This document shows positions 1-4,626 of a DNA stretch of 61,271 nt, piece after piece. Positions within the stretch are counted from its first letter, which is position 1. The number at the start of each line of letters is the position of its first letter. The stretch comes from Chloroflexota bacterium (GTDB taxonomy: Bacteria > Chloroflexota > Limnocylindria > Limnocylindrales > CSP1-4). The notes beneath the pieces are model-generated. The model saw only the letters and a program-made list of their open reading frames with translations. It searched no databases and had not been told where the DNA came from. The position numbers and the translations under genes are program-made. Where the stretch lies: NCBI GenBank assembly GCA_039931975.1, contig JBDTQW010000003.1, positions 1 to 61,271 on the forward strand, written 5' to 3'.

Positions 1-697
1 TGTAGAGCGGAAGGGCGAACAGGAGCGTGGCCCACAGTCCGGCGCCGCCAGGCAGCCGCTCGTAGATCTGTGCCATCAACCAAGCGAGTGGCGCTAGCGC
101 AAAGAGGTTTGCCCAGTATCCGCGTGCATCTCCGAGGAGGACGAGTCGGAAGTCCAACCCATGCAGGAGGCTTACGCTGGCCGCCGTGATGACCACATTG
201 AGAAAAAAGCAGATACCGGCCATGACGATCGTCGCGGCGAAGCTAACCGCCGGTTCACTGGATACCCTGAGGATCGCCTCATAGGCGAAAGCACCGAGGA
301 TCGCCGGGAGGACGATGCCGGCGTGATTGAACAGGGAGCCATACCAAGGCACTCGTCCGCGAAGCTCGCGGACCTCAGTAGTCCCGAGCGCGGCCACCCA
401 CCCGGCCGCAGCCGGACCTCCCAGGATTGCCGCGGCAACAATCGGAGCCAGCGCGACGGATACAAGGGTCCCGCGCGGCATCCTAACCGGAAACGCCGAC
501 GCGAAGAGTGTGATCAGGACCCAAAATCCCACGCCCAAAAGTGCAAAGAGCGGGGTTGCTTGCTCGCTGACCGCGATCGACCGGCGCATCCCGAGGACGT
601 AGTCCGGTGCCCCAACAAAGACAAGACTCGTGACAACGAGTGCGATTGCACTCGCTCCCACGAGCCCTGCAATGTAGAACCTAAGTGCCTTCGGCAT
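1..697 (-). CDS. Multi-pass membrane sensor protein, N-terminal part only (runs off the window edge); resembles the MASE-type input domains that precede HD-GYP/GGDEF domains
   Basis: Not in the ORF track. ATG at 697 preceded by GGGACGAGGA, open for 232 codons to the edge. Translation MPKALRFYIAGLVGASAIALVVTSLVF...FWVLITLFASAFPVRMPRGTLVSVALAPIVAAAILGGPAAAGWVAALG...WYGSLFNHAG...WATLLFALPLY has many hydrophobic segments. Any catalytic domain lies outside the window. Confidence 0.8.
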   Translation of the reverse strand, partial: MPKALRFYIAGLVGASAIALVVTSLVFVGAPDYVLGMRRSIAVSEQATPLFALLGVGFWVLITLFASAFPVRMPRGTLVSVALAPIVAAAILGGPAAAGWVAALGTTEVRELRGRVPWYGSLFNHAGIVLPAILGAFAYEAILRVSSEPAVSFAATIVMAGICFFLNVVITAASVSLLHGLDFRLVLLGDARGYWANLFALAPLAWLMAQIYERLPGGAGLWATLLFALPLY

Positions 698-769
698 TCC
701 TCGTCCCTGAGATCCCGACCTCCCGGAACTCTAATCCCTCTGGTCAGGACTGGTTATGAGACTAAGGTC

Positions 770-859
770 CTAAAAGCCCCTTAGTGACGCAGCGCCAGCA
801 AGCGCGGCGGCGAGCACCGCGCCCAAGGCGACTACTGTTCGAAGGAAGCGGTCCTTCAT
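770..859 (-). CDS. 29-aa signal-peptide-like small protein MKDRFLRTVVALGAVLAAALAGAASLRGF
   Basis: Manual translation from ATG 859 to TAG 770. Basic n-region, 15-residue hydrophobic core, AxA motifs and a short polar tail. Below the ORF-track cutoff; its own SD is weak (AGTGGA). Confidence 0.65.
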   Translation of the reverse strand: MKDRFLRTVVALGAVLAAALAGAASLRGF

Positions 860-882: not shown

Positions 883-915
883 TTACCAGGTCTTGGTAAA
901 CGTTTCGGTCGCCAC
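883..915 (-). CDS. 10-aa micro-ORF (V/M)ATETFTKTW
   Basis: GAGGAGGT (928-921) lies 5 nt before GTG 915; TAA at 885-883; ends 23 nt upstream of the 29-aa peptide ATG. Confidence 0.4.
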   Translation of the reverse strand: MATETFTKTW

Positions 916-952
916 GGTGTACCTCCTCGCGGCCCTCATGCCCTTAGAGACA

Positions 953-985
953 CGAAAACCGACCTGACTGGTAAGTCGGTCGGTT
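953..985 (-). terminator. Terminator-like hairpin (riboswitch expression platform)
   Basis: Minus-strand RNA AACCGACC-GACU-UACC-AGUC-A-GGUCGGUU followed by UUCG: 8 bp plus 4 bp with one bulge and a short U tract. The 5' arm is shared with the aptamer 3' end. Confidence 0.6.
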
Positions 986-1048: not shown

Positions 1049-1093
1049 ATCTTGACATTGCTTCCCAGTACTTCCGTACTGAGTCGTGGCGGG

Positions 1094-1123
1094 ACTATAG
1101 GTAGCCCGAACTTCGCCGGTCAA
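1094..1123 (-). promoter_or_regulatory. sigma70-type promoter TTGACC-N18-TATAGT for the riboswitch/peptide transcript
   Basis: ggtcaa at 1118-1123 and actata at 1094-1099 on the + strand; overlaps the regulator stop codon. A CAGUAC-GGAA-GUACUG hairpin (1081-1066) would sit near the transcript 5' end. Confidence 0.6.
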
Positions 1124-4100
1124 TACGGCACCTTACCTATCGTCACAAGGCTCTCGAGTGACGGCGGCTCAATTCCTAGATCGTTTCGGAACGCGGCAGC
1201 GTAATGCCCGTAAAGCTCCGCGGCAGCCGATTGGGCGTCAGTTCGGACGTAGAGCCGAACGAGTGACAGCTGCATCTGCTCGGCCTTGGGGTCGGCCTCA
1301 AGGGCTCTCCTAGCCAGCCTGATCGCCCGATCGACTGCACCCGTGTTGGTATCAGCCGAAACAGCCCGTTCGATGATTTCCAAGTAGCTCGCGTGCATCG
1401 AGTCACGAAACTGCCCAGCCCAGTCCTCATATTCGAAGTCAAGGGCAAACCGACCCCGGTACGTCTCGCTCAGGCGTTCGACATTCTCGGGTGATGGATC
1501 TGCCTCGGCTTGGCGGATGGCCGCTCGCGACCGAGCAGATCGGCTGTCCACGAGCTCGGGATCCAGCCATAGCACATCAGAGTCATGGTGCAGGTAGTGA
1601 GGGGACGTATCGGCCGAGTAGGACGGCTCGAAGACACGGCGAAGGTGGTAGGCGGTTTGGTTCAGCGAGTTGACCGCGATCTTTGGAGCCTGCTCAGGCC
1701 ACAAGGCATCGAGCACCTGGTCCCGTGTCGCCGACAGGTTCGGGCGTGACAGAAGGAAACAAAAGAGCGCCAGCGCCATTCGACGCACTCCCGTGCTACC
1801 CAAGATATCCCTATCCCCGACTTGAATGGCCACGCGGCCCTGGTCCTCGACGACGATACGAGCAGCGAGCCGCCGGGCCAGTCCGCGACCTAGGCCAGCA
1901 GCCCCGTGCGATCTCCGGTGTTCCTTTGCGATGAGACGCAATGGGAGGACATCCTGGTGTTCACCGACCCGATCGAGGATTACGGCCGCCTCGAGTCTCA
2001 AACGTCGATCATCCCGATGGATGGCTTGCCTCAGTCCCTCTCTCCAGCGGTCCGGCATCCGAGCAGCCTCAGACGCTACCGATGCGAGGACTGCTGGATC
2101 GAGGAGCGGGAGCCGGTCGGTAACCAGCTCAGCGATCAGCGACAGGCTGGCTGGCCTATCGGCGACGACATGGCGCACGGCCTCGTTGAAGGCCGGCTGG
2201 TCATGAGTCGCCGCCTGGAGCACTCGGGCGCTGCAGGCGTAGAGACGTGCGCCTTGTCGTACTGCCAGGTTTAGAGCGTCGGACACGTCCTTGTCGGCTC
2301 CAGCTGACTTCGCCGCGACGGCGAGCCAGGCCCTGGTCAAGAGAAAACGGCTCATGAATGCCGCGACGGCGTGCGGACGATCGGTGGCGATGGCGTCGAG
2401 GCTCATCCGGGCCCCGTCGAGGTCGCCCCGACGCAACGCGAACATGGCAGACACCAGGTGCTGAAGATCGACGGTGGAGTCTGAGTTAAAGGGAGCTTCA
2501 GACGCCCGTAGCAGCGATCCTTCGCCCAGGAAGCGGTCGCCGAAGGCAGCATAGGCCTCCGCGATGAATGCCAGGGTCTCGCCCCTGACTGCGTCAAAGT
2601 CCTTCGATTCCGCTCGCTGAAACTCCTCGCGCGCCTCTTGCCATTCGCCTTGCTGCGCGAGGGCCCAACCCCGAAGAGCCATGGCAGCCTCAACCTCGAT
2701 CCCGGAAGATGTGGCCGATAGCTCTTGGATTGCTCTGGTCGATGCGGACAGTGCGCTCGCCGTATCGCCTCGGGCGCAGTCGATATCCGCGACATTGAGC
2801 CACGTGATTCCAACGTAGTGTCGGAGGCCGCTCGCCTCCTGTTCAGCCGCCATCTCTAGGAGCATGGTCCGTACTTCATCGAGGTTCGCAGTCGTCGAGC
2901 CGTCGAGGATTGCCACCACGGCTCTCGCGATTGCACGGACGATGCTCGAGGTCGTGCGAGTGGCCAACAGTTCTGCCACCTCGTGCTCAGTCTCCAGATC
3001 ACCACCGACATGCAGGACCGTGATCAGGTTGAGTAAAGCGTGGTCGGCGATGGTCGCCTGGTTCCAACTCATCGCTTTCTCGACAGCGAGCTCAGCGTGC
3101 TTGCGAGCGCTATCAGTGCGGCCACGGTAGAGGTCCATTCGCGAAACGAAGAGCTCGAAGGCTGCGTTGTTCTGGGCGCCGACCCGCAGAACGTAGGACT
3201 CGGCCAGGGCGAATTCGCCGGTACCCATGATGGTCGGTACTGCAGCCTGAACCACAGTGGCGAGATCAGCCATGTCGTCTGCGGCCGCGAAGTGGTAGGC
3301 CGCCAGGCGCCAGTCCGATGCGCCAGCGTGGCGAGCCACGGCTCGATGGAGATCTCTGGCAACGGCATCCCCGAGTGTGCGTCGCAGCCGCGATTCCAGG
3401 AACTCGCGCACGAGCGGGTGATACCGCCGGACCCCTCGGCGACTGGTTCCCCGCGTCGACAGGAGGCCGTATCGCTCCGTGGCAGCGATCAACTCTCTCG
3501 CACGAGTGGCCGGGAATCCACCGACGACCTCGGCCAGGGCCGGATCGACGGTCTGTAGCAGCGATGTAGTCATGAGGAAGCGTTGGGTCTCGTCGTCGAG
3601 ATCGCCGACCACCTCCTCGGCGAGGTAGTCGTACAACTCGCCTTGCGCCCCGCTCAAGCCCCGGACGAAGGTCCGGATCTCGCCGGGCGATCGGTCTCGC
3701 AGCGCTGCGTTGACCATCTCCAGGGAGGCTGCCCAGCCTTCCGTCCGATCGGCCAGGTCCGACAGCACATCCGGTTCCAGAGTCCGCTTATACGTCTCTC
3801 GGAATAGCCGCTCGGTCTCATCGAGGTCGAAACGGAGATCCGCGGCGTCGAGTTCCGCAACCTCACCGAGGGTCCGCAAGCGAGCCAATGGGACCGTGGG
3901 TGAAAGGCGAGACACGAACACGAGGGTGAGGCGCTCAGGAGCGCGGCTGATCAGCTGTTTGATCAGGACCCTGATATCGGGGACGTCGTCGACGAGGTGG
4001 TAGTCGTCGATAATCAGCGTGGCTCCCTTCGGGCCGAGGCTCTGGAGCTCCCTCATGAAGGTGGCGATGACCGTGTCGCGCGACGGGCCTGTCCCGACCC

Positions 4101-4626
4101 CGAGCTCGGTCAGCAGGCCCTTCGTCGCGGGCGCGAAGTCCGGCTTGATCTCCCGTCCGGCGGCAACCAGGTAGTGAAGAAAGCTCACCCAGTTGCGGTC
4201 GTCCTCGTCGAGCCGGTACCACATCGTCGGCCGTCGGTGATGGCGCGCGAAGTCGGCCAGCAGCGTCGTCTTGCCGTATCCAGCCTCGGCGGTGACGAGC
4301 ACGATCCGATGGTGGATCTTGACCTTCAGCCACGCGATCAGGCGTTCGCGACGCAGCGTTTCGCGCCGCAACGGCGGTCGCTGGACCTTCGCCGGTTGGA
4401 GCGGGAACTCGTGCAAGACGTCGCCGCCGATCGGGAGCGCAAGGCTGGGGCTGGATGCCGGTCGTCCCGGTCCGACAGGAACCGGTTCCCGCGCTCCCAG
4501 CTCGATGCGGGTCCCCGTGGACGGCCCCAACGATAAGGACCGGTTCTCCCTGGTGTCAACGCCGCGGTCGGCCAGGGGCGTTCTGTTGGGTTGGGCCATG
4601 TCGCCATAGTGGCGAGCGACGCTCAT
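1120..4626 (-). CDS. Large transcriptional regulator: MalT-like STAND ATPase, TPR-like helical region, C-terminal SARP module (OmpR-type wHTH + BTAD)
   Basis: Walker A AEAGYGKTTLL, Walker B LIIDDYH, MalT-like TEGWAASL and LYDYLAEEV motifs; C-terminal ATRDQVLDALWPE...LRRVF and YRGRFALDFEYEDW. Exact start uncertain. Confidence 0.85.
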   Translation of the reverse strand: MSVARHYGDMAQPNRTPLADRGVDTRENRSLSLGPSTGTRIELGAREPVPVGPGRPASSPSLALPIGGDVLHEFPLQPAKVQRPPLRRETLRRERLIAWLKVKIHHRIVLVTAEAGYGKTTLLADFARHHRRPTMWYRLDEDDRNWVSFLHYLVAAGREIKPDFAPATKGLLTELGVGTGPSRDTVIATFMRELQSLGPKGATLIIDDYHLVDDVPDIRVLIKQLISRAPERLTLVFVSRLSPTVPLARLRTLGEVAELDAADLRFDLDETERLFRETYKRTLEPDVLSDLADRTEGWAASLEMVNAALRDRSPGEIRTFVRGLSGAQGELYDYLAEEVVGDLDDETQRFLMTTSLLQTVDPALAEVVGGFPATRARELIAATERYGLLSTRGTSRRGVRRYHPLVREFLESRLRRTLGDAVARDLHRAVARHAGASDWRLAAYHFAAADDMADLATVVQAAVPTIMGTGEFALAESYVLRVGAQNNAAFELFVSRMDLYRGRTDSARKHAELAVEKAMSWNQATIADHALLNLITVLHVGGDLETEHEVAELLATRTTSSIVRAIARAVVAILDGSTTANLDEVRTMLLEMAAEQEASGLRHYVGITWLNVADIDCARGDTASALSASTRAIQELSATSSGIEVEAAMALRGWALAQQGEWQEAREEFQRAESKDFDAVRGETLAFIAEAYAAFGDRFLGEGSLLRASEAPFNSDSTVDLQHLVSAMFALRRGDLDGARMSLDAIATDRPHAVAAFMSRFLLTRAWLAVAAKSAGADKDVSDALNLAVRQGARLYACSARVLQAATHDQPAFNEAVRHVVADRPASLSLIAELVTDRLPLLDPAVLASVASEAARMPDRWREGLRQAIHRDDRRLRLEAAVILDRVGEHQDVLPLRLIAKEHRRSHGAAGLGRGLARRLAARIVVEDQGRVAIQVGDRDILGSTGVRRMALALFCFLLSRPNLSATRDQVLDALWPEQAPKIAVNSLNQTAYHLRRVFEPSYSADTSPHYLHHDSDVLWLDPELVDSRSARSRAAIRQAEADPSPENVERLSETYRGRFALDFEYEDWAGQFRDSMHASYLEIIERAVSADTNTGAVDRAIRLARRALEADPKAEQMQLSLVRLYVRTDAQSAAAELYGHYAAAFRNDLGIEPPSLESLVTIGKVPY

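Follow-up and report, generated by a model that had tools for sequence, protein, structure and literature searches.

MgrB and SafA, which act on the histidine kinase PhoQ, are tiny single-helix membrane proteins made under the same pathway that they feed back on, with the membrane or periplasmic part of the sensor as their proposed target (PMC2789325, PMC8404706). The SHP peptides of the streptococcal SHP/Rgg systems derive from precursors of 20 to 35 residues with a basic N-terminal end and a hydrophobic body, in which the conserved, active part is a C-terminal stretch of about 8 residues ending at the stop codon, and their genes are usually missed by annotation (PMC5167397, PMC7564271). The staphylococcal AgrD is a small membrane-targeted propeptide encoded in an operon with polytopic membrane proteins (AgrB and AgrC), among them a sensor that has no large extracellular domain. 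In the Phr peptides of Bacillus, a Sec-like N-terminal signal and an A-x-A site come before a C-terminal product that is very short and contains a basic residue; the precursors are 38 to 57 amino acids (aa) long, contain a pro-region, and are encoded with a (usually overlapping) Rap gene, and the peptides exert their effect intracellularly once Opp has imported them. The membrane sensor domain MASE9 is widespread among enzymes that act on cyclic di-GMP (c-di-GMP), and we know of no signal for it. Here we describe a 29-codon open reading frame (micro-ORF) at positions 770..859 on the minus strand of a Limnocylindria (Chloroflexota) contig, JBDTQW010000003.1, which was analyzed over its whole length of 61,271 bp (the window; 69% G+C) and belongs to a metagenome-assembled genome (MAG) of 2.65 Mb in 145 contigs. 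The micro-ORF is the gene of a new small-protein family that lies between a c-di-GMP-II riboswitch and the gene of a MASE9-HD-GYP enzyme, probably a c-di-GMP phosphodiesterase (PDE), and its product may be a membrane-tethered partner of that enzyme.

The locus differs from each of these systems. The micro-protein has no sequence similarity to MgrB or SafA, its proposed target is the MASE9 PDE rather than a histidine kinase, and its gene is physically linked to that proposed target and placed under a riboswitch rather than a response regulator. Whereas MgrB has 47 aa and a functional periplasmic region, the micro-protein has 29 aa and almost no part that would extend beyond the membrane. Its size fits the SHP precursors, but there is no Rgg (XRE-HTH) regulator; the neighbor is a MalT-like STAND/TPR/BTAD regulator, and the flanks of the corresponding loci outside Limnocylindria hold no regulator of any kind. 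The tail is also almost invariant across genera instead of polymorphic, and the candidate receptor is a membrane enzyme. An earlier note, made from the sequence alone, had drawn an analogy with Phr. The Sec-like signal and short basic tail bear out that likeness, but membership in the family fails: the micro-protein has no pro-region, no homology to Phr, no match to a Pfam family and no Rap partner, its neighbors being the STAND/TPR/winged helix-turn-helix (wHTH)-BTAD regulator and MASE9-HD-GYP, neither with a Rap-like match. Compared with Agr, there is no Cys or thiolactone motif and no AgrB-like peptidase, the DUF5317 protein encoded in the operon has no detectable relation to one, and the output would be c-di-GMP hydrolysis, not phosphorylation. 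With neither the defining partners nor homology, the micro-protein does not belong to the MgrB/SafA, SHP, Phr, or AgrD families. By analogy it may resemble MgrB and SafA in its possible action or, if it is processed, SHP, Phr, or AgrD. In the literature on MASE9, on DUF5317, and on HD-GYP in connection with small membrane proteins or c-di-GMP-II riboswitches, we found no description of this peptide, nor of any micro-protein linked to MASE9 or DUF5317.

The gene starts with ATG, stops with TAG (772-770), and encodes MKDRFLRTVVALGAVLAAALAGAASLRGF, with a basic N-terminal end (K2/R4/R7), a hydrophobic core, and small residues at positions 19, 21, and 22-25; the tail after A21 reads GAASLRGF. The reading frame, its basic/hydrophobic/A-x-A layout, and its distance of 72 nt from the next minus-strand ORF (ATG at 697), the membrane sensor, are all as the earlier note had described them. 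The Shine-Dalgarno (SD) sequence of the micro-ORF is weak, and its start lies 23 nt past the end of a short upstream open reading frame (uORF). A filter on composition and architecture, applied to the whole 2.65-Mb genome, returned the micro-ORF as its one match among 12,699 combinations of small ORF and start codon. The gene is single-copy, a search of its own genome with the peptide giving no paralogue, and a Pfam scan of the 29-aa peptide gave no family at E ≤ 0.01. When 8 peptides of the family were looked up exactly in a collection of 15 billion proteins, 7 were absent, including that of the window, and the remaining one was present without a name, which suggests that gene callers rarely report the micro-ORF and lends indirect support to the claim that it is unannotated.

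Loci for comparison came from a riboswitch search in 61 relatives and a PDE search of species-representative genomes (80 of 561 relatives used), and presence was counted only where at least 200 nt of upstream sequence was available. The frame and its C-terminal motif are found in all 76 Limnocylindria loci of this kind, about 72 nt before the same gene; 67 are intact, and 9 have a frameshift or an unusual start, mostly in long-read MAGs. The length is exactly 29 codons in 80 loci, which yield 73 different nucleotide sequences and 72 different peptides with the consensus MKxRLxRLxxxLSAVAAxALAGGASL[RK]GF. Among the 73 sequences, the start is ATG in 67 and GTG in 6, and the stop is TAG in 60, TGA in 11, and TAA in 2. 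Their mean entropy at codon positions 1, 2, and 3 is 0.92, 0.62, and 1.63 bits, and over codons 19-26 (ALAGGASL) it falls to about 0-0.4 bits at positions 1 and 2, with position 3 at about 1.8-1.95 bits. The ratio of nonsynonymous to synonymous substitution rates (dN/dS, Nei-Gojobori) over the whole ORF is 0.22 in the annotated frame, compared with 1.35 and 1.80 in the shifted frames. The corresponding ratio of proportions (pN/pS) is 0.17 for codons 19-29 and 0.62 for codons 2-18, the N-terminal part keeping only its basic/hydrophobic composition, and the tail hardly changes over more than 20 genera and down to a PDE identity of 58%. To judge from these codon statistics, it is the protein that purifying selection acts on, and above all its last 11 residues.

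The 3-base periodicity, the low dN/dS in this frame only, and the presence of the frame at every locus counted establish the micro-ORF as a real gene. Spurious ORFs are frequent at 69% G+C, and the list of ORFs in the window holds many, but the idea of a chance ORF in a GC-rich 5′ untranslated region is refuted by these comparative data and keeps hardly any credibility. The earlier note let the gene stand or fall with conservation of the frame at orthologous loci, and on this count the gene is upheld. The same note had looked ahead to paralogues and orthologues with a conserved core and a variable tail; the core is indeed conserved, but there is no paralogue and the tail is nearly invariant. 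In a group of few-contig, probably long-read MAGs (L004, L006, L010, L015, L022, L028, and their L04x twins), frameshifts occur in the micro-ORF and PDE alike; these are most likely assembly indels and not pseudogenes.

Beyond its own family, the micro-ORF travels with the enzyme. A peptide profile searched against 401 Chloroflexota genomes matched two families of the class, its own and a second in which the peptide is 31-32 aa long, ends in AGGAS[FL][KR]GW, and is again encoded between a c-di-GMP-II riboswitch and a MASE9-HD-GYP gene. In genus g9 of its own family and in a third family (f4), whose PDE is only about 40% identical, the micro-ORF keeps its place immediately before the PDE (for example, ...GGGASYRPF and MRRILMAVAALAALVLGGGAGVSGI). 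In these two groups the riboswitch either is a degenerate copy scoring 29-37 bits or escapes detection, and the uORF, which otherwise ends in K-x-W, is missing. The uORF thus goes with the riboswitch and the micro-ORF with the enzyme. The Pfam MASE9 model, searched against 301 Chloroflexota genomes, added loci outside Limnocylindria, and 10 of 17 of these have a micro-ORF of the same build on the same strand, 80-250 nt upstream (examples are MKWLVVRILAALSFVLGLLMAVGAGQKWF, MKWQIWRALVVVAALVSAVIASGANDKW, MRKMISVLTGLVSGAVAGGTNLSF, and MKVKLMRVAAVLMGLVTLGLASGADVKVGW). The shared build consists of a basic N-terminal end, about 14-18 apolar residues, a small-G-small motif after A or G, 2-5 polar residues, and an aromatic residue before the stop. 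The strict architecture filter that had been applied to the whole genome retained, at 27 MASE9 loci, Limnocylindria included, 16 of 600 small-ORF candidates, all of them just upstream of MASE9. The link to the downstream membrane sensor that the earlier note had claimed is thus strongly supported, class-wide and in other Chloroflexota families. One Chloroflexota locus outside Limnocylindria (L136, G072:C361) has a micro-ORF-like frame, MRLIYVLLSLLAMALAGGAPVPDSFGPG, between a TPR-wHTH-BTAD regulator upstream and a stand-alone DUF5317 gene downstream.

We currently favor a membrane-tethered micro-protein, at a confidence somewhat short of even: a 29-residue partner of MASE9-HD-GYP, possibly together with the fusion of DUF5317 and a major facilitator superfamily (MFS) transporter encoded behind it, whose production would be gated by c-di-GMP and which would close a feedback loop. 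High c-di-GMP would lead to read-through at the riboswitch and so to synthesis of the peptide from the first full cistron of the leader, which follows a putative promoter, the riboswitch with its terminator-like hairpin, and the short uORF with its strong ribosome-binding site. The micro-protein would then insert in the cytoplasmic membrane. Under the positive-inside rule, its basic K2/R4/R7 end would stay in the cytoplasm and the conserved ALAGGASL[R/K]GF-COOH would face outward, at the outer surface and in the half of the membrane next to it. There, uncleaved, it could act within the membrane on the PDE as an input or regulatory subunit, with DUF5317-MFS as a possible joint target. The level of c-di-GMP would in this way be coupled to its breakdown, and if the effect on the PDE is activation the outcome would be homeostasis. 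With its 29 residues and a single predicted transmembrane helix (residues 2-23 in the read-through model described below), the micro-protein has the size and build of the small membrane-protein regulators of sensors, which are proteins of at most 50 aa with one such helix. In-membrane ligand binding has also been proposed by those who described MASE9 (bioRxiv 10.1101/2021.11.05.467447). Should this reading be correct, a riboswitch would control a second-messenger enzyme via a micro-protein, beyond mere transcription of the enzyme gene, and the locus would exemplify functional small proteins hidden in the leaders of the abundant, uncultured Limnocylindria of freshwater and soil.

The most serious competitor, possible though unlikely in our estimate, is a secreted peptide, in which signal peptidase I would cut after A-L-A(21) and free GGASL[R/K]GF (GAASLRGF in the window) outside the monoderm cell. 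As an autocrine or quorum signal that tunes the breakdown of c-di-GMP, the free peptide would be a ligand sensed by MASE9 or a substrate for export by DUF5317-MFS. Sec signals have a charged n-region, an h-region of 7-15 residues, and small residues at -3 and -1, and the peptide offers K2/R4/R7, apolar residues 8-18, and A19-L20-A21 before G22, so that it has the full build of n-, h-, and c-regions, with an h-region of only 14 residues from R7 to A21. Residue -3 is A, V, or I and residue -1 is A, G, S, or T in the 73 sequences and in the other families, and each lineage has small residues at both (ALA/GG, AIA/GG, VTA/GG, VIA/SG, and VLG/GG, with the slash at the putative cleavage site). Secretion would also suit the conservation of the last 11 residues and the free, exactly positioned C-terminus with its aromatic end, as well as the efflux-type MFS transporter in the operon, and in being small and hydrophobic the peptide is like SHP and AgrD, which act from cell to cell (PMC5167397, PMC7564271). 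Against it, the tail scarcely varies across the class, unlike that of diversifying pheromones, and the total length is fixed, leaving a mere 8 residues after the putative site, without the mature domain that would drive Sec translocation of a passenger. From its sequence, MASE9 has short outer loops and no obvious extracytoplasmic binding domain. It is the near-invariant tail, the fixed 29 codons, these short outer loops, and the span between R7 and R/K27, with its 19 apolar or small residues, that lead us to favor tethering over secretion. We rejected a lipoprotein because the peptide has no Cys, and a Tat signal because a twin-Arg motif is not consistently present. We likewise rejected the idea that the peptide is the first MASE9 helix split off from the enzyme, which has an N-terminal helix of its own and covers the start of the Pfam model. 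Both fates had been raised in the earlier note, and neither comes through whole: the A-x-A followed by GG suits a precursor of a 5-8-residue peptide, but the constancy of tail and length favors the uncleaved mini-protein, as does the want of a sizeable outer domain in MASE9, and covariation and structure prediction do not separate the two.

Several observations weigh against a tethered partner of MASE9. The motif [A/V/I]-x-[A/G/S] followed by GG reads as a textbook signal-peptidase I site, and the almost free evolution of codons 2-18 is what a signal peptide would show. We modeled a stop-read-through fusion of peptide, 24-residue spacer, and MASE9 with AlphaFold2 (AF2), reading TAG as Q and using 12 paired rows and 116 PDE rows. 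MASE9 folded well (predicted template modeling score 0.82), but the peptide helix reached a predicted local distance difference test (pLDDT) score of only 75/68, the tail stayed below 50, and there was no confident docking, so that the model speaks neither for nor against contact. The mutual information between the last 12 peptide residues and 101 aligned PDEs averaged 0.26-0.34 for MASE9 and 0.21-0.42 for HD-GYP; since the values for MASE9 are no higher than those for the cytoplasmic control domain, phylogeny dominates the signal and the comparison is uninformative about the partner. Among the 17 MASE9 genes outside Limnocylindria, 7 have no detectable micro-ORF, two of these with too little upstream sequence. 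The direct partner could, moreover, be DUF5317, as the L136 locus would allow.

Taken as a full explanation, a small subunit of DUF5317-MFS comparable to KdpF or CydX, with the PDE a mere neighbor, seems rather improbable. DUF5317 follows the PDE in about all Limnocylindria loci, where it is fused to MFS, and in 6 loci outside Limnocylindria, and L136 has no PDE between the micro-ORF-like frame and DUF5317. In the loci studied, however, the micro-ORF is always immediately upstream of the MASE9 gene and not of the DUF5317 gene, and the sole DUF5317-only case has a different, longer tail. We give still less weight to a cis-acting leader peptide without a function of its own, whose translation or pausing at [R/K]-G-[F/W]-stop would steer the folding of the spacer and the expression of the PDE. 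The ending does resemble the KG[WF]-stop of the uORF, TAG is over-represented as the stop (60 of 73), and a conserved hairpin begins 2-5 nt past it. A pause has no need of a 29-residue membrane-type sequence, though, nor would it account for selection on 11 consecutive residues and on the hydrophobic/basic composition of the rest; the spacer in front of the PDE is anywhere from 42 to 195 nt long, depending on the lineage, and in folds the SD of the PDE is outside the hairpin. The least plausible of the functional alternatives is a membrane-depolarizing peptide like a type I toxin (compare TisB, 29 aa) with synthesis gated by c-di-GMP, which has in its favor the size, the hydrophobicity, and a tightly controlled, structured leader. 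Type I toxins are patchy in distribution and often multicopy, and the micro-ORF is single-copy, strictly syntenic in a signaling operon across the class, and endowed with a specific conserved C-terminal motif; no signal of an antitoxin RNA was seen.

A more far-reaching reading, which we put forward as speculative and rather doubtful, takes the micro-protein as the self-made cognate ligand of MASE9, produced when high c-di-GMP opens the riboswitch and switching on the PDE either as an in-membrane helix or as cleaved GGASL[R/K]GF, perhaps exported by DUF5317-MFS. If so, it would be the first natural input known for any MASE9 domain and the first case of a peptide signal that connects a riboswitch directly to the turnover of a second messenger, ancient within Chloroflexota and possibly beyond. 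In any case, a co-encoded peptide of 24-33 residues is a concrete and cheaply testable candidate input for MASE9.

The MASE9-HD-GYP gene in the window (2..697, minus strand) is cut by the contig end after its N-terminal 232 residues, which match Pfam MASE9 at 20.7 bits (cut-off 24.3). Complete orthologues of 474-478 aa score 24.6 bits for MASE9 and 128-134 bits for HD_5 and have intact HDVGK and HHEWYNGSGYP motifs, which makes them probable c-di-GMP phosphodiesterases; the AF2 model of the MASE9 part has a pLDDT of 80-97. A broad protein search with the MASE9 region returned, among the matches listed, only Limnocylindria relatives (1258 clusters). In orthologous loci the PDE is followed by the DUF5317-MFS fusion, of the efflux type, and then by a PIG-L protein. 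Upstream of the leader, at 1120..4626 on the minus strand, is a regulator of 1168 aa that, according to Pfam, combines a MalT-like STAND ATPase, tetratricopeptide repeats (TPR), a wHTH (Trans_reg_C), and BTAD; it matches NCBIfam MalT at 221 bits, below the cut-off, and its C-terminal wHTH is of the OmpR type. The order dodecin, regulator, leader, micro-ORF, PDE, DUF5317-MFS, PIG-L is found in about 88 loci by tblastn, and the regulator is syntenic in about all of those from Limnocylindria. Linkage of the micro-ORF to MASE9-HD-GYP and DUF5317 is thus conserved. In the flanks of MASE9 genes of other Chloroflexota families the STAND regulator was not seen, and DUF5317 or MFS often was.

The riboswitch, like the MASE9-HD-GYP enzyme, is an ordinary member of a known family. 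Its c-di-GMP-II aptamer (Rfam RF01786; 969..1053, minus strand) scores 59.9 bits against a gathering threshold of 53.5 (E = 6e-13), covers model positions 1-84 of 84, and is the one copy in the genome. It is found above the cut-off at the same place in 28 of the 61 relatives, as well as in the second family of the class. A promoter-like site, TTGACC-18 nt-TATAGT (1094..1123, minus strand; found by consensus scan), would drive the leader; the CCTATAGTCC block at this site is nearly invariant in an alignment of 29 genomes, and its -35 is overlapped by the stop codon of the upstream regulator gene. The leader then begins with a 5′ hairpin, CAGUAC-GGAA-GUACUG (1064..1083, minus strand), which forms in the minimum free energy (MFE) fold and whose GTAC..GTAC arms are conserved in the same alignment, as is the whole leader. 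Downstream, a terminator-like hairpin of 10 bp, ACCGACCGAC-UUACCA-GUCAGGUCGGU followed by UUUCGUGUCU (948..984, minus strand), was read from the sequence, forms in the MFE fold, and is also nearly invariant in the 29 genomes. Because the 3′ end of the aptamer (AACCGACCGAC) doubles as the 5′ arm of this hairpin, binding of the ligand should disfavor the terminator, and from this arrangement we infer an ON switch for c-di-GMP. The earlier note had not linked the micro-ORF to this riboswitch and the uORF, which would control it.

A full-length aptamer in the leader, above the gathering score and with an expression platform of the terminator type, agrees with the c-di-GMP-II class at large. This case stands apart in that regulation falls first on a uORF of 10 codons and a micro-protein gene of 29, both in front of the gene for a c-di-GMP phosphodiesterase, and in that its host is a Chloroflexota lineage of 69-70% G+C. 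Four relatives (G019, G022, G008, and G018) contain 7-16 additional c-di-GMP-II-like matches each, below the threshold (28-51 bits) and scattered over the genome, which could represent an expanded or variant riboswitch class in Limnocylindria. At three loci of genus g9 (L149, L150, and L152), the riboswitch position has weak matches only (37.3, 34.0, and 29.7 bits), that of L150 fitting best to the c-di-GMP-II-GAG variant model; judging by these scores, the aptamer may have degenerated or changed specificity in g9 while the micro-ORF and PDE were kept. Another family of the class has a c-di-GMP-I-GGC variant riboswitch (L166:676-753, minus strand; 64.5 bits, cut-off 59) near a distant HD-GYP paralogue.

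The uORF and its strong SD, GAGGAGG (928-922), occupy 883..928 on the minus strand, as seen in the sequence and in relatives. It has 10 codons, from GTG at 915 to TAA at 883, and encodes (M)ATETFTKTW. A uORF of 6-10 codons occurs in 95 unique relatives, never without the riboswitch, and always ends in K-x-[WF]-stop: KGW in 49, KGF in 14, KPW in 11, KAW in 10, and KTW, KSW, KQW, or KVW in the remainder. Its stop is TAG in 72 and TAA in 23 of the 95 and never TGA, the codon that ends 67% of the long ORFs in the genome. From the end of the uORF to the start of the micro-ORF there are 2-47 nt (median 19). The codon before K varies, and no compensating changes accompany it; what is conserved is thus not a local inverted repeat (hairpin). 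The restriction to stops that release factor 1 (RF1) reads may mark a device for termination pausing or for ribosome delivery, and with it an expression platform of a kind that would be new among riboswitches. In three loci (L018, L047, and L049) the uORF unit is duplicated in tandem and in frame. The uORF ending resembles the [RK]G[FW] end of the micro-protein.

The spacer between the micro-ORF stop and the PDE start (699..767, minus strand) folds into a long nested hairpin in single-sequence predictions. Across 74 loci, spacer folds contain a mean of 10.0 long-range pairs compared with 5.8 in shuffled sequences (mean z -2.1), and 88% have at least 5 pairs. The sequences of the hairpin arms differ between loci, and RNAalifold on MAFFT-aligned spacers gave no consensus structure. 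Enclosed by the hairpin is a TAnnnT hexamer (TAGAGT, 733-728), preceded by GGAGGGA-like purines, of which T1, A2, and T6 are kept in 41 of 41 aligned spacers. The hexamer with its spacer could be an undescribed RNA element or an internal -10 promoter; in the latter case, no full cistron but the micro-ORF would depend wholly on the riboswitch.

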